A stretch of 46,165 nucleotides of DNA. Origin: a virus (Duplodnaviria > Caudoviricetes). Each line of letters opens with the position of its first letter. Positions within the stretch are counted from its first letter, which is position 1. Of this stretch, positions 2,896 through 18,362 are shown piece by piece. The stretch is from positions 1 through 46,165 of IMG/VR virus record IMGVR_UViG_3300020045_003071; one strand, written 5' to 3'. Under the pieces are notes generated by a model that was not told the origin of the DNA, made no database searches, and was given only the letters and a program-made list of their open reading frames with translations. The translations under genes and the position numbers were made by a program.

Positions 2896-4617
2896 TTATT
2901 GTGCAAATATTGCATTCATAATGCTAAATTGTTTCACTTCTTGTGGTTTATCTTCTCTTCCTTGCAAAACAGCGAGTGCTATACTCCAAGAAATAACAAT
3001 ATCGTCATGATTTCCGATACTAGCCTGTGGTTTTCCACGTTTATCACGTACAAATGTTAGTATTTCCTCTAGGAGAGGTCTGCAGTTAATCATTACAGTG
3101 GCATTAAAATGTTTCTTAGCTTCTCCAAGCATGAAATCACGTGTTTTCTTAGATGTTAGCCAACCATAAGAACGAGTTACTTCTTTAGTAACGTCATCTA
3201 CTACAGTACGCATATACATAGAAGGATAGTTACGATGTCTTAACTCTGTGTTAACCCAGTTACCGTCTTTATTGAACTCAATAGCAAGTATAGCTGTGTT
3301 ATAACGCATACCAAGTTTATGTACTAACTTAGCGTATTCGTCTGGTTCTAAGTGTCCTCTGAACAATGCTTTCACTTGTTTATCATAGCCAAGTACTATA
3401 GCTACAGAGTAATCTCCGCTCTCAAGTCCTTCAGCCACATCTCCTCCGACCACGTAGTTACGCCCTGGTCTTACTTCATCATAGATATACAAATCACCTC
3501 TATCGTCTTTGATAAACTCATCGTTAATGAAAGAGTATCTTTGGTAGTTGGTATCACACTGGTCGAGGAATGTAGCAGCCTTACGAGAGTTAAAGTAAGG
3601 TGAACCAGAAGACAGGAACGCTTCCATTGGATGAGTAGGATACTCTTGATGTAACTTATCTATATCCTTATTAGCGTTGATGTACTTCAAGTAGTAGAAG
3701 TTCATTTCTTCATCAGACAACTGGTTCTCTTCTTGATACTCTTTCCAGTTAATCTCACACTCTTCCATATCGTCTACAGTAATCAAACCGTCTACAGCAG
3801 CTGCTTGTATTTCAGCAGTGTCCCAACTCCAGTTGTAGAAAACAGATTTAAAGTGAGCCTTTGAGAGAGCAGGTGTAACAGTGTCTCGTATCTTCCAGCC
3901 GTCCATGAATAGCTCATAGAACAGTCCACTAGCTCCTTCAGCAGTAGATTCAATAATAGCCTGACCACCTACAGGAATAGCAGGTAGAGTTCCTGTTACT
4001 ATTTCTTCAGCTCTACCTTGATAAAGCTTGGCTAATTTACCCAGCTCACTTATGTGCACGCCAACTGAAAACGTCCCAGAGCGTGCACTATTACTCACAC
4101 CGATAGCAGAAACACTACCATCAGGATAAGAAAACTGTTGTCTGGAAGCCTTGGCTTGGGACATATCAAGAATGCTTCTAAGTGCTGGGGTAAAGTTTTT
4201 AATTGCATAGATTATTTTACGGTTAAATATCTCATTAGCATCCTTGAGAGTATGAGCAATCTGTAGAGCTTCTGAGTTAGGTCTAAATATTACTTGATCT
4301 AGGAAGTATAATGATATTAACGTAGTAAATCCAAGCTGTCTAGCTTTAAGTATAGCTATCTTCTTATACCCCTTAGAGAGATAGTTCTCAAAGAAGTGTT
4401 GTTGGGCCTTATTCAATTTGAAGAGGTCCTTTCTTCCATCCTTAGTCATAATAGAGTAAAGATGTTGTAACCTCCATAGAGTAGAATCCTTATGAATAAA
4501 CACATCAAAGTGTTTTTCAATAAGATAGTCTACCTGTAGGTCAATGGGTAGTTTACTGACTATTACAGGTTTACCGTTAAGTTCGGTAGATACATTAAGT
4601 AATTGCTCGATATTCAT
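2896..4617 (-). CDS. terL: Terminase large subunit
   Basis: Walker A-like LKARQLGFTT, Walker B HISE, coupling motif ESTAEG, RNase H-like nuclease GGDVAEG...GDYS...HDD. Confidence 0.95.
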   Translation of the reverse strand: MNIEQLLNVSTELNGKPVIVSKLPIDLQVDYLIEKHFDVFIHKDSTLWRLQHLYSIMTKDGRKDLFKLNKAQQHFFENYLSKGYKKIAILKARQLGFTTLISLYFLDQVIFRPNSEALQIAHTLKDANEIFNRKIIYAIKNFTPALRSILDMSQAKASRQQFSYPDGSVSAIGVSNSARSGTFSVGVHISELGKLAKLYQGRAEEIVTGTLPAIPVGGQAIIESTAEGASGLFYELFMDGWKIRDTVTPALSKAHFKSVFYNWSWDTAEIQAAAVDGLITVDDMEECEINWKEYQEENQLSDEEMNFYYLKYINANKDIDKLHQEYPTHPMEAFLSSGSPYFNSRKAATFLDQCDTNYQRYSFINDEFIKDDRGDLYIYDEVRPGRNYVVGGDVAEGLESGDYSVAIVLGYDKQVKALFRGHLEPDEYAKLVHKLGMRYNTAILAIEFNKDGNWVNTELRHRNYPSMYMRTVVDDVTKEVTRSYGWLTSKKTRDFMLGEAKKHFNATVMINCRPLLEEILTFVRDKRGKPQASIGNHDDIVISWSIALAVLQGREDKPQEVKQFSIMNAIFAQ

Positions 4618-7523: not shown

Positions 7524-7570
7524 ATTCTATACCCTGTACAATATATTGCAAGTTTATTCCTGTGGATAAC
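7524..7570 (-). promoter_or_regulatory. DnaA-box-coupled promoter
   Basis: GTTATCCACA-N9-TTGCAA-N16-TAGAAT. Confidence 0.75.
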
Positions 7571-11352: not shown

Positions 11353-11521
11353 ATTTTTTTTCTTCTTCTCCTTCCTTAAGTTCTTTCCCTGACCATCGAC
11401 CTACTCTTATTCCACATTTAGGATCTAAACATCTATACTCTGAGATACCATCATAGTAGTTTGGTGAGTTCCAAGCATACTCAATCATTATTTGATCTGA
11501 TCCACATTTACATTTTTTCAT
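11342..11521 (-). CDS. 59-aa zinc-ribbon protein (MKKCKCGSDQIMIEY...YDGISEYRCLDPKCGIRVGRWSGKEL)
   Basis: Hand translation; two Cys pairs; ATGA overlap with the HNH stop. Confidence 0.75.
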   Translation of the reverse strand: MKKCKCGSDQIMIEYAWNSPNYYDGISEYRCLDPKCGIRVGRWSGKELKEGEEEKKYGK

Positions 11522-12033
11522 AATCCTATTTCATTATCTGTTAATTTATTTAATAATACATTCTTATGTCCGTAGTTATCAGTCTTTCTGTGACACTCTA
11601 TACATAGTGTTCTTCCATTATCTATATCAAATCGTAGTTCTGGATAGTGTGCAAATGATTTGATGTGGTCTGAATTTAATATACCTCCACGTGTTTTACA
11701 TTCTTGGCAAGTATAATCATCACGTTTAAATACAGTACTTCTCCAATCTCTATAAGATAATGAATGTCTTAGTTTTTCTAACTTAGAAGTCTTATCTCCA
11801 ATTCCTTTGTTCCAAGGTACAAATCCTTTCTTAAAAGAAGTTTCAGTGGTTTTTTTATTTGCACATTTTAAACATTTATTACCACGTATCTTATTCTTCT
11901 TATTACTATATCCTACTGGATAAATAAGTCTGTACATAGAGTAACCTACAACTCTAGTAGCTTTACATTCTGAGCACGTAACAGTATATTTTTGTTCTTT
12001 AGCTTTTAATGTCATCTTCTGGGTCATAGTCAA
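11518..12033 (-). CDS. HNH endonuclease (NUMOD3-like FKKGxxPWNKG plus HNHc)
   Basis: WRSTVFKRDDYTCQEC...HIKSF...RFDIDNGRTLCIECH. Confidence 0.9.
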   Translation of the reverse strand: MTMTQKMTLKAKEQKYTVTCSECKATRVVGYSMYRLIYPVGYSNKKNKIRGNKCLKCANKKTTETSFKKGFVPWNKGIGDKTSKLEKLRHSLSYRDWRSTVFKRDDYTCQECKTRGGILNSDHIKSFAHYPELRFDIDNGRTLCIECHRKTDNYGHKNVLLNKLTDNEIGL

Positions 12034-12859
12034 CGTCTCCTAATTTGTAGAGAGCTAAACATGCAAGAAATCCTTTATAGTCTTTTTCAAATGTATAGCT
12101 AGACTGTACTTCTAAATCGTTACCATTCTTTCCACTCCTAATAATTACTGTGCCGACTATATCGTTATCGTACCCCATCTCGTTCCATGCGGCACGATAC
12201 GCTGCACACTGGTAGAAATAACTACGGCCATATATTCCTGAAGAGGTTTTGAAATCAGCAATAAATTTTTGTCCATTAATCTCAATAATTAAGTCACAAG
12301 TTCCTGCAAAGAATCTCCTCTTACTTACAGTAGTCATCTCAGACTGTAAGAACTTAACATGGTCCATAGGAGCTATTGAGATACTATTCTTATCATAAGA
12401 GTTCTTCTTAGTAGCAGCTGGTACTCTTCCATTACACCAATCTACAAACGGTTGTAGTATCTTATGTAACTCTTGGTCATCAGGTATAGCAGGAATTGGC
12501 TGATTATTAATATGAGCCTTAGCATAGTCCTCTACCCAAGCATGAGCCTGTGTACCTATATCCATAGCAGCTCCTGAGTTACGCTTAGATGCCCAGTCCT
12601 TGGTGTCCAGTATCTGCTGTATCTTCTCATTGTTAATCTTTAAACATTCTTCGTAGGCAAGCTTCACAGCCCACTCTAGTATCTGTGGCTTAGATTCCTT
12701 GTTAAGGATTGTCGTGACTCCAGTCACGGATACACCATTCAGCTTGTAACGATTCTTGCCTCCTTCATTAGGAGAGAATATGAGTATGTCTACATCACTA
12801 TTGTCATGGGTCATGATAGTCTCTATTGTTTCTCCTTTGTCTATTTTAGTTATTTTCAT
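11999..12859 (-). CDS. PD-(D/E)XK nuclease (RecB/Cas4-like phage exonuclease)
   Basis: GVTTIL, GTQAH, AGTCDL...ADFKTS and YQCAAY motifs. Confidence 0.88.
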   Translation of the reverse strand: MKITKIDKGETIETIMTHDNSDVDILIFSPNEGGKNRYKLNGVSVTGVTTILNKESKPQILEWAVKLAYEECLKINNEKIQQILDTKDWASKRNSGAAMDIGTQAHAWVEDYAKAHINNQPIPAIPDDQELHKILQPFVDWCNGRVPAATKKNSYDKNSISIAPMDHVKFLQSEMTTVSKRRFFAGTCDLIIEINGQKFIADFKTSSGIYGRSYFYQCAAYRAAWNEMGYDNDIVGTVIIRSGKNGNDLEVQSSYTFEKDYKGFLACLALYKLGDVDYDPEDDIKS

Positions 12860-15763: not shown

Positions 15764-16471
15764 ATGATAAAAACAGAAGGAAAACTAACGCAAGGATTTG
15801 GTGCTAATGCAACTCCTACTTATGTTGCAGGTGGACTTAAAGGACATTCAGGAATCGACCTAGATAATGGTTATGGATCACCTATCCACTCGTACTGGGA
15901 TGAAGAGTACGTATATAAAGTTCTAACAGTAGAAAATCCAGCAAATGATGGTTCAGGATTCACTGGAGTGTTCACAATCGTAGAACAAGATGGAAAGGTA
16001 TTTGAGTTTCTTTATGGACATTGTAATCCTACAGTTAAGGTAGGTTCAATACTCACTAAAGGTTCTGTGTTAGGTACTCAGTCAAATAACGGTGAATGTT
16101 ACTCAGGTGGTGTACGTATCACTTTAGAGATGCAAAAGAATGGAGACCACAGAGGTACACATCGTCATGACCAAGCTCGTGAACTTATAAAAGAAACAGT
16201 TGCTCAGAATAGAAGACATATAATTGGATTAGACGGTACAGCCTTTCATAAGGATGGAATCTACTATGGAATACTAAACTATGACAATGGCTATAATGGT
16301 TGTTTTGACTGGCTGACATGGCAGAAAGGTATTACTGGAGTAGAAACACCTTTTACTAAGTTTGAAAAGGCTCTTAAAGAGTTTCAAATATCAGAAGGTA
16401 TAAAACCATATCCTCTTGTTGGTCCTTCAACTAAGAAAGCACTTAACAAATATTTAACAATCAAATACTAA
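15764..16471 (+). CDS. Endolysin: M23-family peptidase with C-terminal peptidoglycan-binding element
   Basis: HSGID (HxxxD), YGH, HRH (HxH); KALKEFQ..EG.....VGPSTKKALN. Confidence 0.85.
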   Translation: MIKTEGKLTQGFGANATPTYVAGGLKGHSGIDLDNGYGSPIHSYWDEEYVYKVLTVENPANDGSGFTGVFTIVEQDGKVFEFLYGHCNPTVKVGSILTKGSVLGTQSNNGECYSGGVRITLEMQKNGDHRGTHRHDQARELIKETVAQNRRHIIGLDGTAFHKDGIYYGILNYDNGYNGCFDWLTWQKGITGVETPFTKFEKALKEFQISEGIKPYPLVGPSTKKALNKYLTIKY

Positions 16472-16694: not shown

Positions 16695-16724
16695 AAAGAA
16701 CCACCCAAATCGGGTGGTTTTCTT
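16693..16724. terminator. Bidirectional terminator
   Basis: AACCACCC-N5-GGGTGGTT between convergent genes. Confidence 0.85.
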
Positions 16725-16896
16725 ATCTTTCAGAGACATTTTTTTCATTGTCTTTTTTTAGTAATTCCTTAATCTTATCCTCAACTTTTGTAGAACAGTG
16801 TATATGGTATATCTTATTGCCAATTCTCTTTTTAGGAGTATTACCAAGTAAGATACCACCACACCATGAGCAAGCAAAATCATTGTATTCGTACAT
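16723..16896 (-). CDS. 57-aa zinc-finger protein (CxxC...HxxC)
   Basis: Hand translation MYEYNDFACSWCGG...YHIHCSTK; AAGGA upstream. Confidence 0.65.
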   Translation of the reverse strand: MYEYNDFACSWCGGILLGNTPKKRIGNKIYHIHCSTKVEDKIKELLKKDNEKNVSER

Positions 16897-16905
16897 AATA
16901 TATCC

Positions 16906-17151
16906 TTAGATTGAGTTGCGAGACCAAATCAACGTAGTAGCTTCTTCTTCAATGAGATAAATTTGATATTCACCTTTTTCATCAAGCAAAACAACAAAGA
17001 GTAACTCTTTATGTTCCACTAGAAGACAGTACATTTCTTTCTTATTGTAGTTGCATTTAGATTGAGCAACAATATCACCACCACTTAGATCAATATATGA
17101 AGCTTGTGCATTAAATGCAAGTAAAGCTAACGATATTAATAGGTACTTCAT
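16906..17151 (-). CDS. Secreted hypothetical protein
   Basis: Signal peptide MKYLLISLALLAFNAQA; SD AAGGAG. Confidence 0.75.
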   Translation of the reverse strand: MKYLLISLALLAFNAQASYIDLSGGDIVAQSKCNYNKKEMYCLLVEHKELLFVVLLDEKGEYQIYLIEEEATTLIWSRNSI

Positions 17152-17315
17152 TTCTTACTCCTTGGTTGTATTCTTCCTTGTAAAGGAAATGATTTGTCAT
17201 AGCATATGATACAGTATTGAAAACCTGTATTTGTTTTGTAAGGATCACCTTTTAAAAGTGACTTCTTACAAGTATGGCAAGTAAGCTTGTGGCTTTGAAC
17301 GGTATGAGTAATCAT
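17148..17315 (-). CDS. 55-aa zinc-finger protein (CxxC...CxxC)
   Basis: C-terminal half of the 117-aa track ORF; ATG at 17315 preceded by AAGGA. Confidence 0.6.
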   Translation of the reverse strand: MITHTVQSHKLTCHTCKKSLLKGDPYKTNTGFQYCIICYDKSFPLQGRIQPRSKK

Positions 17316-17400
17316 TTTGACATCCTTGGTAGTAAAAAAATCGGTTGAACATATCACACATACGCAAATAGTTGAGATTAAACTCAATAATAAAGTACAT
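17266..17400 (-). CDS. 44-aa hypothetical protein
   Basis: Perfect SD AAGGAGG 4 nt before the ATG; MYFIIEFNLNYLRMCDMFNRFF... Confidence 0.5.
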   Translation of the reverse strand: MYFIIEFNLNYLRMCDMFNRFFYYQGCQNDYSYRSKPQAYLPYL

Positions 17401-17440: not shown

Positions 17441-17468
17441 TTGACAATATTGTTAAGTATTGTATACT
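17441..17468 (+). promoter_or_regulatory. sigma70 promoter of the ncRNA
   Basis: TTGACA-N16-TATACT. Confidence 0.75.
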
Positions 17469-17474
17469 AGATTT

Positions 17475-17831
17475 ACACAAGCTCATGATGGTGCTATACA
17501 TCGTCTAAGGCTAGGAATAGGGAACTCTATGATACTTGTTCTCGAATCGACTCCATGGTGCGAGCCCACTGGAATGCCATGTATCAAACCTACTAGCTAT
17601 GTATAGAGTATGCTAGATGGTGGAGAATAAAGACGTTTGCTAGTTATCGTAAAAACTAGAACTGCACAATAGTGTAAAGAAAGCACCTAGACCTTAGGGG
17701 ACTAGAGTTCAGGAATGAAACGTACTGATTGGATATGCAGTAAAACTACTGGGGCGTAAGCTCCCTGCTCGTACTAGATATCATAGAATCGACAAGTAGA
17801 CAATTAACTACACAGAAATGTGTAGTTTTTT
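17475..17831 (+). ncRNA. Candidate ~355-nt structured ncRNA (family not recognised)
   Basis: Own promoter and terminator, no ORF of 60 aa or more, a closing helix, nested hairpins with GNRA loops and a potential pseudoknot. Confidence 0.72.
17806..17831 (+). terminator. Intrinsic terminator
   Basis: AACTACACA-GAAA-TGTGTAGTT followed by a T run. Confidence 0.88.
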
Positions 17832-17834
17832 GCA

Positions 17835-17844
17835 TGTGGATAAC
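17835..17844. promoter_or_regulatory. DnaA box (reverse orientation) upstream of a probable + strand promoter
   Basis: TGTGGATAAC, then AAGACA-N16-TATACT. Confidence 0.6.
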
Positions 17845-17900
17845 TCACAAGACAAATTACATTTTTTATATATACTCAATATAGGCACTAAGCCTTAATT

Positions 17901-18362
17901 ATGAAACATAAAGAACTCTTACCATACACAACAAAACATTTTAATCAATTAAAAGAATTACACCAAGAAGCAATTCAAAGATACCAAAAAGATAATCAAA
18001 AAATATTTTATCAACAAATACACGAGTTAAGAGAAAAGATGTTTGAATATGAGAATGTAGTTCTTTACAATAAATACGCAATTAACCATTGTAAATTTGG
18101 TAATTCTATAGATACTGAAGAAATATGTGAGCATGTATTCACACAGACTTTAAAACATTATTCTATACATGGGAATTGTTGTAAGTCATGTAGCACACAT
18201 TTTTCATACGTAGTACAACCTAAAAAAGCAGATAGTGTTATAGACACATTAATAGATGAAGAGAATAAAATTAAAGCAGAACACTTAAAAGAGTTTGAAG
18301 CTATCTATGATTTATCTCCTTGGAAATTGTTATCCACATACAATAGGTTGACTAAAGAGTAA
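17901..18362 (+). CDS. Hypothetical protein with Cys/His cluster
   Basis: ORF track; CEH...CCKSC. Confidence 0.75.
   Translation: MKHKELLPYTTKHFNQLKELHQEAIQRYQKDNQKIFYQQIHELREKMFEYENVVLYNKYAINHCKFGNSIDTEEICEHVFTQTLKHYSIHGNCCKSCSTHFSYVVQPKKADSVIDTLIDEENKIKAEHLKEFEAIYDLSPWKLLSTYNRLTKE

Follow-up and report, generated by a model that had tools for sequence, protein, structure and literature searches.

A small family of structured RNAs, apparently undescribed, in uncultured phages

The RNA gene and its genomic setting

The window analysed here is a whole virus record of 46,165 nt, which carries terminase, tail, helicase, exonuclease and lysis genes; no tRNA or tmRNA was called within these 46,165 nt. 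The RNA gene (17441-17831, plus strand) is flanked by a minus-strand group of small genes and by an orphan gene at 17901, and it stands out in composition, with a GC content of 0.42 compared with 0.25–0.30 in the flanks, and with nine CTAG tetramers where 1.07 are expected (a feature spotted post hoc). Capsid identity to the window is 93, 92 and 83% in the related phages G406, G409 and G413, respectively. In the window, the small-gene group that separates the holin from the RNA (16723-17400) is read in the opposite direction to the RNA, leading away from it, but in G406 and G409 this group shares the strand of the RNA. The lysis gene ahead of the holin (15764-16471) encodes an M23 peptidase in the window and in G406, and the corresponding gene of G409 (L506:5590-6140) looks like a different peptidase; the lysis region therefore swaps genes besides the RNAs.

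A relative of the window exonuclease (43% identity) was found in a Candidatus Paceibacterota genome bin, and this was the sole confirmed GTDB match (1 of 103 pattern matches); used as the sole search feature, the exonuclease had no viral relative. Perfect DnaA-box-like 9-mers occur six times in the window (at 7561, 9039, 13625, 17835, 18330 and 21314) against 0.53 expected, several of them directly upstream of promoters, and the presence of such sites is a habit associated with Patescibacteria. Together, the Paceibacterota exonuclease relative and the DnaA-box-like sites hint at a host among the Patescibacteria, whose phages have, to our knowledge, barely been studied. CCGG is absent from the window although 7.4 copies would be expected, and both GCGC (2 copies, 11 expected) and GATC (46 copies, 137 expected) are depleted; these shortfalls across the whole window suggest that host restriction or methylation sites are avoided.

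Transcription would begin at a sigma-70-type promoter (TTGACA-N16-TATACT, 17441-17468, plus strand), which agrees with the consensus at 11 of 12 positions; the 6 kb between 15 and 21 kb contain 27 such sites, with 26.4 expected by chance, and this one scores best. The predicted transcription start, near 17475-17477, falls where the conserved core described below begins, and G406 has a like promoter layout (TTGACA-N17-TATAAT). At the other end, an intrinsic terminator (17806-17831, plus strand) stands directly 3' of the stretch 17636-17805; its centre, CACAGAAATGTG, recurs in the terminator of G413, which stands directly 3' of the core. The next gene (17901-18362) is preceded by a DnaA-box-like site and a separate promoter of its own (17835-17876), in a layout similar to that in G406 and G409. 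Promoter and terminator are both present as claimed in a preliminary description of this DNA. The ORF-free body claimed there does not hold in the strict sense, as a 117-aa frame on the minus strand from 17501 and a 48-aa frame on the plus strand (17460-17606) overlap the RNA gene. The 117-aa frame had no match in PHROGs and a Pfam match below the cutoff only, and its start at 17501 is probably wrong because a 44-codon frame that opens near 17400 has a strong AAGGAGG ribosome site ahead of it. A small peptide gene was also considered and dropped (frames of 25 and 14 codons, judged by eye).

Members of the family

The 5' part of the gene (17477-17621, 145 nt, plus strand) is, as judged by sequence comparison, a member of a small uncatalogued RNA family with six members. 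The conserved unit measures about 145–160 nt across the family, and the members are 38–63% identical pairwise in a hand alignment of all six. We gathered 38 related viral loci through the putative capsid protein, and BLAST of the window RNA against 36 of their records returned no match on the RNA. The RNAs of G406 and G413 were spotted by eye in the same slot of these closest complete relatives, directly upstream of a homolog of the gene at 17901. Across 2.09 Mb of loci, a motif pattern derived from the window, G406 and G413 matched the three RNAs and nothing else; in IMG/VR the same pattern returned 21 loci, comprising G406, G413, a new member (L533) and 18 that we judged to be chance matches. 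L533 belongs to an unrelated phage, in which both the capsid and the protease module differ.

With L533 as the query, 17535-17623 was the sole match in the window (E = 0.0084), and the window–L533 pairwise score exceeded those of all 2000 shuffles. The portion 3' of the T-loop, which lies outside the search pattern, was equalled by 1 of 5000 shuffles, and the 5' portion by 165 of 5000. Against G406, 4 of 2000 shuffles scored as high as the window did; against G413, 129 of 2000 did, which is not significant. A model built from G406 and G413 placed L533 at the top after the training pair (16 bits, E 0.003–0.019), and neither this model nor a three-member sequence profile recovered the window. 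The evidence for membership is therefore a chain, since the window connects to L533 by sequence and L533 connects to G406 and G413 by the model, while the window is tied to G406 and G413 by position and motifs.

A four-member model run over 53 viral records at E ≤ 0.1 gave five matches: three training members, a further member, G432 (E = 5.5e-5), and one false match in a coding region (G440, E = 0.035). The sixth member, L219, was found with the same model at E 0.25 (96 sources, 823 kb). Because another false match, in a coding region of one of the host genomes treated below, scored 27.9 bits and so outscores L219 (23 bits), we base the membership of L219 on its features. The structure was drawn without G432 and L219; every element recurs in the two, with all motifs in place and new sequences in both knots. 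Further candidates were discarded as false, namely L474 (E = 0.067, motifs missing) and L245/L246 (E = 4). The 92% relative G409 is without the family RNA, and the RNA is therefore dispensable. The corresponding slot of G409 (L506:7464-7540) holds a tRNA-like RNA of about 75 nt, with an acceptor-type stem and odd arms, ahead of a terminator and the same gene; it was called by neither ARAGORN nor Rfam.

BLAST of the window RNA gave only chance matches of 23–25 nt in cultured phages and nothing in plasmids, and the G406, L533, G432 and L219 members gave short chance matches or none in cultured phages. Four IMG/VR patterns built on features of the preliminary description matched 68, 110, 60 and at least 120 loci, respectively, none of them homologous by nhmmer; a 29-letter pattern had no match in GTDB, and 96 loci around exonuclease relatives gave no nhmmer match to the window RNA. 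In host genomes, BLAST returned chance matches of 21–31 nt in 5 of 401, and the motif pattern, which misses the G432/L219 type, was found in none of 401. Patescibacteria genomes searched with the family model gave 0 of 151 and 1 of 151, the lone match being AT-rich coding DNA that lacks the motifs. We met no description of this family in the literature that we searched. Four supplementary files of Fremin et al. 2023 (PMC10690425) contained none of the family motifs; the family may be among the 10,006 candidates of that study, the rest of whose supplement lay beyond our search. The accessible main-text passages of bioRxiv 10.64898/2026.10.21.760802 likewise contained no mention of the family.

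Conserved core fold and the 3' half

All six members share a 5' hairpin, the invariant motifs AAGGCU, GAC and GGU, a T-loop hairpin and two predicted loop-to-loop pairings, and 21 alignment columns are invariant among them. Hairpin P1 (17480-17512, plus strand) consists of a basal stem AGCT/GGCT, an upper stem (17487-17493/17499-17505) and a loop, L1 (CTATA); AAGGCT is present in six of six members, and an AA bulge at 17507-17508 is invariant. The variable hairpin P3 (17515-17548, plus strand), whose stem was drawn by hand for each sequence, carries loop L3 (TGATAC, 17530-17535). Next come the invariant GAC and hairpin P4 (17549-17573, plus strand), for which the six-member parse gives a T-loop-type loop at 17559-17565 and a 3' bulge. 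The P4 cap reads TG-N-R-A plus one or two bases, varying as TGYRARY or TGWRAT, and its likeness to the UGNRA motif leads us to label it a T-loop. P5 (17576-17621, plus strand, same parse) comprises a GCC/GGT basal stem, the strand GTATCA, a CTAGC/GCTAG stem and loop L5 with ATGTATAG. The GCC/GGT stem (short P5a) is found in four of the six, which distinguishes two subtypes: these four members, and G406 with G413, which have a 9-nt insert after P3 instead.

The secondary structure of the core is well supported, and two pseudoknots are likely. The predicted 5' strand of pseudoknot 1 (17494-17501, plus strand) has its partner at 17599-17606 in L5, and 7–9 bp are possible in all six members (8, 7, 7, 9, 7 and 7 bp, with shuffle p values of 0.003–0.038 each). 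L219 shows a full exchange of this pairing; three members share one sequence, whose strands cross-pair with those of G406 and G413 at 6–7 bp. Pseudoknot 2 is predicted between L3 and the strand before P5b, with 5–6 bp formed by five different sequence pairs; it is weak in each single sequence (p 0.05–0.75), and in the cross table a strand's own partner was the best or tied. The machine alignment of G406 and G413 has 49 of 50 cells paired and 7 of 25 pairs changed on both sides, a level of double-sided change reached by 4 of 500 shuffles; the slid controls gave 0. The six-member hand parse has 158 paired cells out of 166 and double-sided changes in 23 of its 31 pairs, counts that come from hand-fitted stems and are therefore optimistic, leaning towards the model.

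Nested folding energy of the cores was unremarkable (z from +0.5 to −1.6), and that of the whole gene gave z = −1.63 with the terminator and −0.79 without it. A single sequence could not decide the fold, because the energy signal is weak and many long helices compete. Folding energy alone does not establish the term highly structured, as applied earlier to this gene. We are highly confident that this is a real structured RNA.

The conserved core does not account for the whole gene. Positions 17636-17805 (plus strand, about 170 nt) form a window-specific 3' extension or a second RNA with a predicted multibranch fold; the stretch had no match in 548 loci (2.2 Mb), and its predicted fold resembles the one drawn in the preliminary description (z = −0.79). 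In L533, L219, G406 and G413 the terminator comes directly after the core, and in G432 the core runs into a tRNA-Trp. The 3' half, outside the family fold, may have been added as a further domain, or it may represent a second, co-transcribed RNA. The preliminary description had instead drawn the whole 355 nt as one fold, closed by a helix TCTATGATA/TATCATAGA (17526/17779); in such a fold the 3' half could perhaps switch the core on and off. Both halves do sit within one promoter–terminator unit, and P3, L3 and the T-loop arm each have complements of 8–10 bp in the 3' half. However, there are 4 helices of at least 8 bp between the halves; shuffles give 2.4 ± 1.6, and 69 of 300 of them reach this number, so the closing helix is not above chance. 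Moreover, the inter-half helices compete with pairings kept in the homologs, and the extension is present in none of the five. We consider a single fold improbable: the conserved unit is about 145–160 nt rather than ~355 nt, and four of five homologs terminate directly after it.

Several elements of that earlier drawing were therefore reassigned. TCTATGATA corresponds to loop L3 and pairs inside the core with GTATCA (17581-17586), the closing helix not being conserved, and the TTGTTCTC/GAGAATAA pairing falls outside the conserved fold. The GAATCGAC repeats had been put forward as processing sites, and only GAC of GAATCGAC is kept in homologs; the GCGA segment, read as a GNRA loop, belongs to the 7-nt T-loop. 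The complementary segments listed are present in the sequence, though not all in the conserved fold, and homologs support both the TCCA-TGG/CCA-C-TGGA hairpin and the CTAGC/GCTAG stem.

Neighbourhood, possible roles and known RNAs

In the window and G406, and probably in L533, the core begins where its promoter is predicted to start transcription. In two of the six members, G432 and G413, the core begins within 1–2 nt of the 3' end of a tRNA-Met gene, and in G432 the core fills the gap between tRNA-Met and tRNA-Trp exactly; in L219, which is on a metagenome contig, it falls just after the stop codon of a gene. Downstream neighbours differ between members (an orphan gene family, an unrelated small ORF region, tRNA-Trp), and no protein gene accompanies the RNA in all of them. 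The longest match of the RNA elsewhere in its own genome is 13 nt, compared with 11–15 nt in shuffles. Since no gene is constant, the next gene in the window has a separate promoter and the RNA has no long self-match, we read it as a free-standing, exchangeable RNA and not as a leader or guide. The earlier proposal of a stand-alone, undescribed structured ncRNA gene agrees with the six members, their motifs and double-sided changes, the gene's own promoter and terminator and the lack of an Rfam family.

Near-exact copies of a ~30-nt terminator flank a small ORF and the RNA gene in L533 (~2910-2870 and ~2425-2395, minus strand), as if this cassette had recently been inserted or duplicated. In L219, a second ORF-free stretch with a promoter-like site (3880-3990) follows the terminator of the family RNA and has no Rfam match. 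ORF-free, GC-raised stretches in three related phage-like contigs (L201:~670-950, L207:~11390-11570 and L213:~3700-3950) look like unrelated ncRNA genes, with no gathering-score Rfam match.

Rfam 15, which includes ROOL, GOLLD, OLE, raiA and HEARO, gave no gathering-score match in the window, none on the gene at E ≤ 10 and none on the G406, G413, G432, L219 and L533 members, in line with the earlier statement that no known family could be recognised. Specific classes were also considered and set aside. RF00010 (RNase P RNA) gave nothing at E ≤ 10, with the control positive in 11 of 14 genomes, and neither RF00023 nor ARAGORN called a tmRNA. For group II introns, RF00029 had no match, AGC is TGC in three of six members and GTGCG occurs in the window only; for group I introns, the sole RF00028 hit (16.9 bits, 12138-12296) is in a coding gene at another locus. 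The family model had no match at E ≤ 10 on T4 species 1/2 RNA (rnaC/rnaD, in a 4.5-kb region). A theta/HDV-like ribozyme topology was rejected by eye, the two loop pairings being separate and not a nested double pseudoknot. Guide RNAs (omega, retron, bridge and CRISPR-type) were set aside with no reverse transcriptase, Cas, IscB/TnpB or recombinase among the matches shown for 55 and 30 window proteins. A likeness of AAGGCUAG to the Cas9 tracrRNA nexus was dropped, as GGCU here pairs with the 5' end.

The invariant bases at the junction, the T-loop and the two clamps suggest, in the modelled fold, a defined three-dimensional surface. A base-pairing guide is unlikely because the two internal knots take up every long variable single strand. 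It is possible, and we propose it tentatively, that this is a stable RNA that acts in trans by its shape. The best explanation at present, offered with equal reserve, is that it binds a host protein dealing with tRNA or other structured RNA, either as partner or as decoy, a role argued from the elimination of rivals and from the tRNA neighbourhood of two of the six members. The RNA would be made from its own promoter, or released from a tRNA precursor in G413 and G432; the L1–L5 and L3–J5 clamps would bring the invariant bases and the T-loop together, and the folded core would bind the host factor during infection.

The main rival to this binding role is a new self-cleaving or RNA-processing ribozyme that would cut near its own 5' end and so free the 3' end of an upstream tRNA. 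The core start at the tRNA-Met 3' end in G432 and G413, with the Met–Trp gap filled in G432, fits such a cut, and the few invariant junction bases with two pseudoknots form a ribozyme-like pattern. Theta ribozymes, according to the available portion of PMC10879173, have cleavage sites at phage tRNA 3' ends. However, in the window, in G406 and, by our reading, in L533, the core begins at or within about 10 nt of the predicted transcription start, which would leave little to cut; the nested HDV fold is absent and Rfam ribozymes gave no match, and we regard a trailer-cutting ribozyme as unlikely. Just as unlikely is the broader proposal of a new ribozyme or ligand-binding class, with the T-loop and two pseudoknots arranged around AAGGCU/GAC, swapped in a tRNA slot of Patescibacteria phages and joined here by a second domain.

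Protein-free oligomers, in which the loop–loop pairings would form from one molecule to another and give a smaller analogue of ROOL and GOLLD, are less likely again. Those two are phage RNAs found near tRNA islands that form RNA-only complexes (PMC12286853, in the part of the article available), and covariation cannot tell intramolecular from intermolecular kissing; yet the present RNA has 145–160 nt compared with 659 and over 800 nt for ROOL/GOLLD, only two long-range contacts and no Rfam match to either. A riboswitch or attenuator acting on the downstream gene through the terminator would fit the order of promoter, structured RNA, terminator and gene, which is usual for such elements, and the terminator directly after the core in four of five homologs. 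It is nonetheless very improbable, as downstream neighbours differ, a separate promoter precedes the downstream gene and, in the G409 slot, a short tRNA-like RNA stands ahead of a terminator and that same gene.

Ever since T4, phage tRNA regions have been known to harbour small structured RNAs, most of which still lack an assigned function. The structured RNAs described here, from uncultured phages, make up an apparently undescribed family whose unit is smaller than in the first drawing; it is compact (about 150 nt), has a defined and testable two-knot fold and comprises six diverged members. RNA cleavage by the core would make it a new class of ribozyme; binding of a host factor would be a sign of an RNA-based step in the infection of Patescibacteria, if these are the hosts.

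Compared with known systems, the family resembles ROOL and GOLLD, as the available part of PMC12286853 describes them, in being phage-borne, often near tRNA genes, pseudoknotted and without a known protein partner, whereas it is at most a quarter of their size and has no Rfam match. The raiA motif RNA, in the sections of PMC10861870 available to us, is likewise about 200 nt long with two covarying pseudoknots and is not a riboswitch by context; it is chromosomal, occurs in over 2,500 Bacillota and Actinomycetota species and has 51 highly conserved positions, whereas the present family is viral, with 21 invariant columns among six members and no Rfam match. Theta (minimal HDV-like) ribozymes, as far as the accessible text of PMC10879173 goes, abut phage tRNA 3' ends, as two of the six family members do; the family RNA is larger and of another topology, without the HDV-type nested knot or catalytic C position. 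The likeness to circularly permuted group II ribozymes (PMC8637638, seen in part) is superficial, consisting of an AGC hairpin near the 5' end and GTGCG in the window; those ribozymes are about 900 nt long against 145 nt here, and the family is without D5 geometry or a branch-point domain. Similar in size and setting are T4 rnaC (139 nt) and rnaD (119 nt; AF158101), small non-tRNA RNAs of a tRNA cluster, whereas members of the present family are also found at a distance from tRNAs, behind a promoter of their own.
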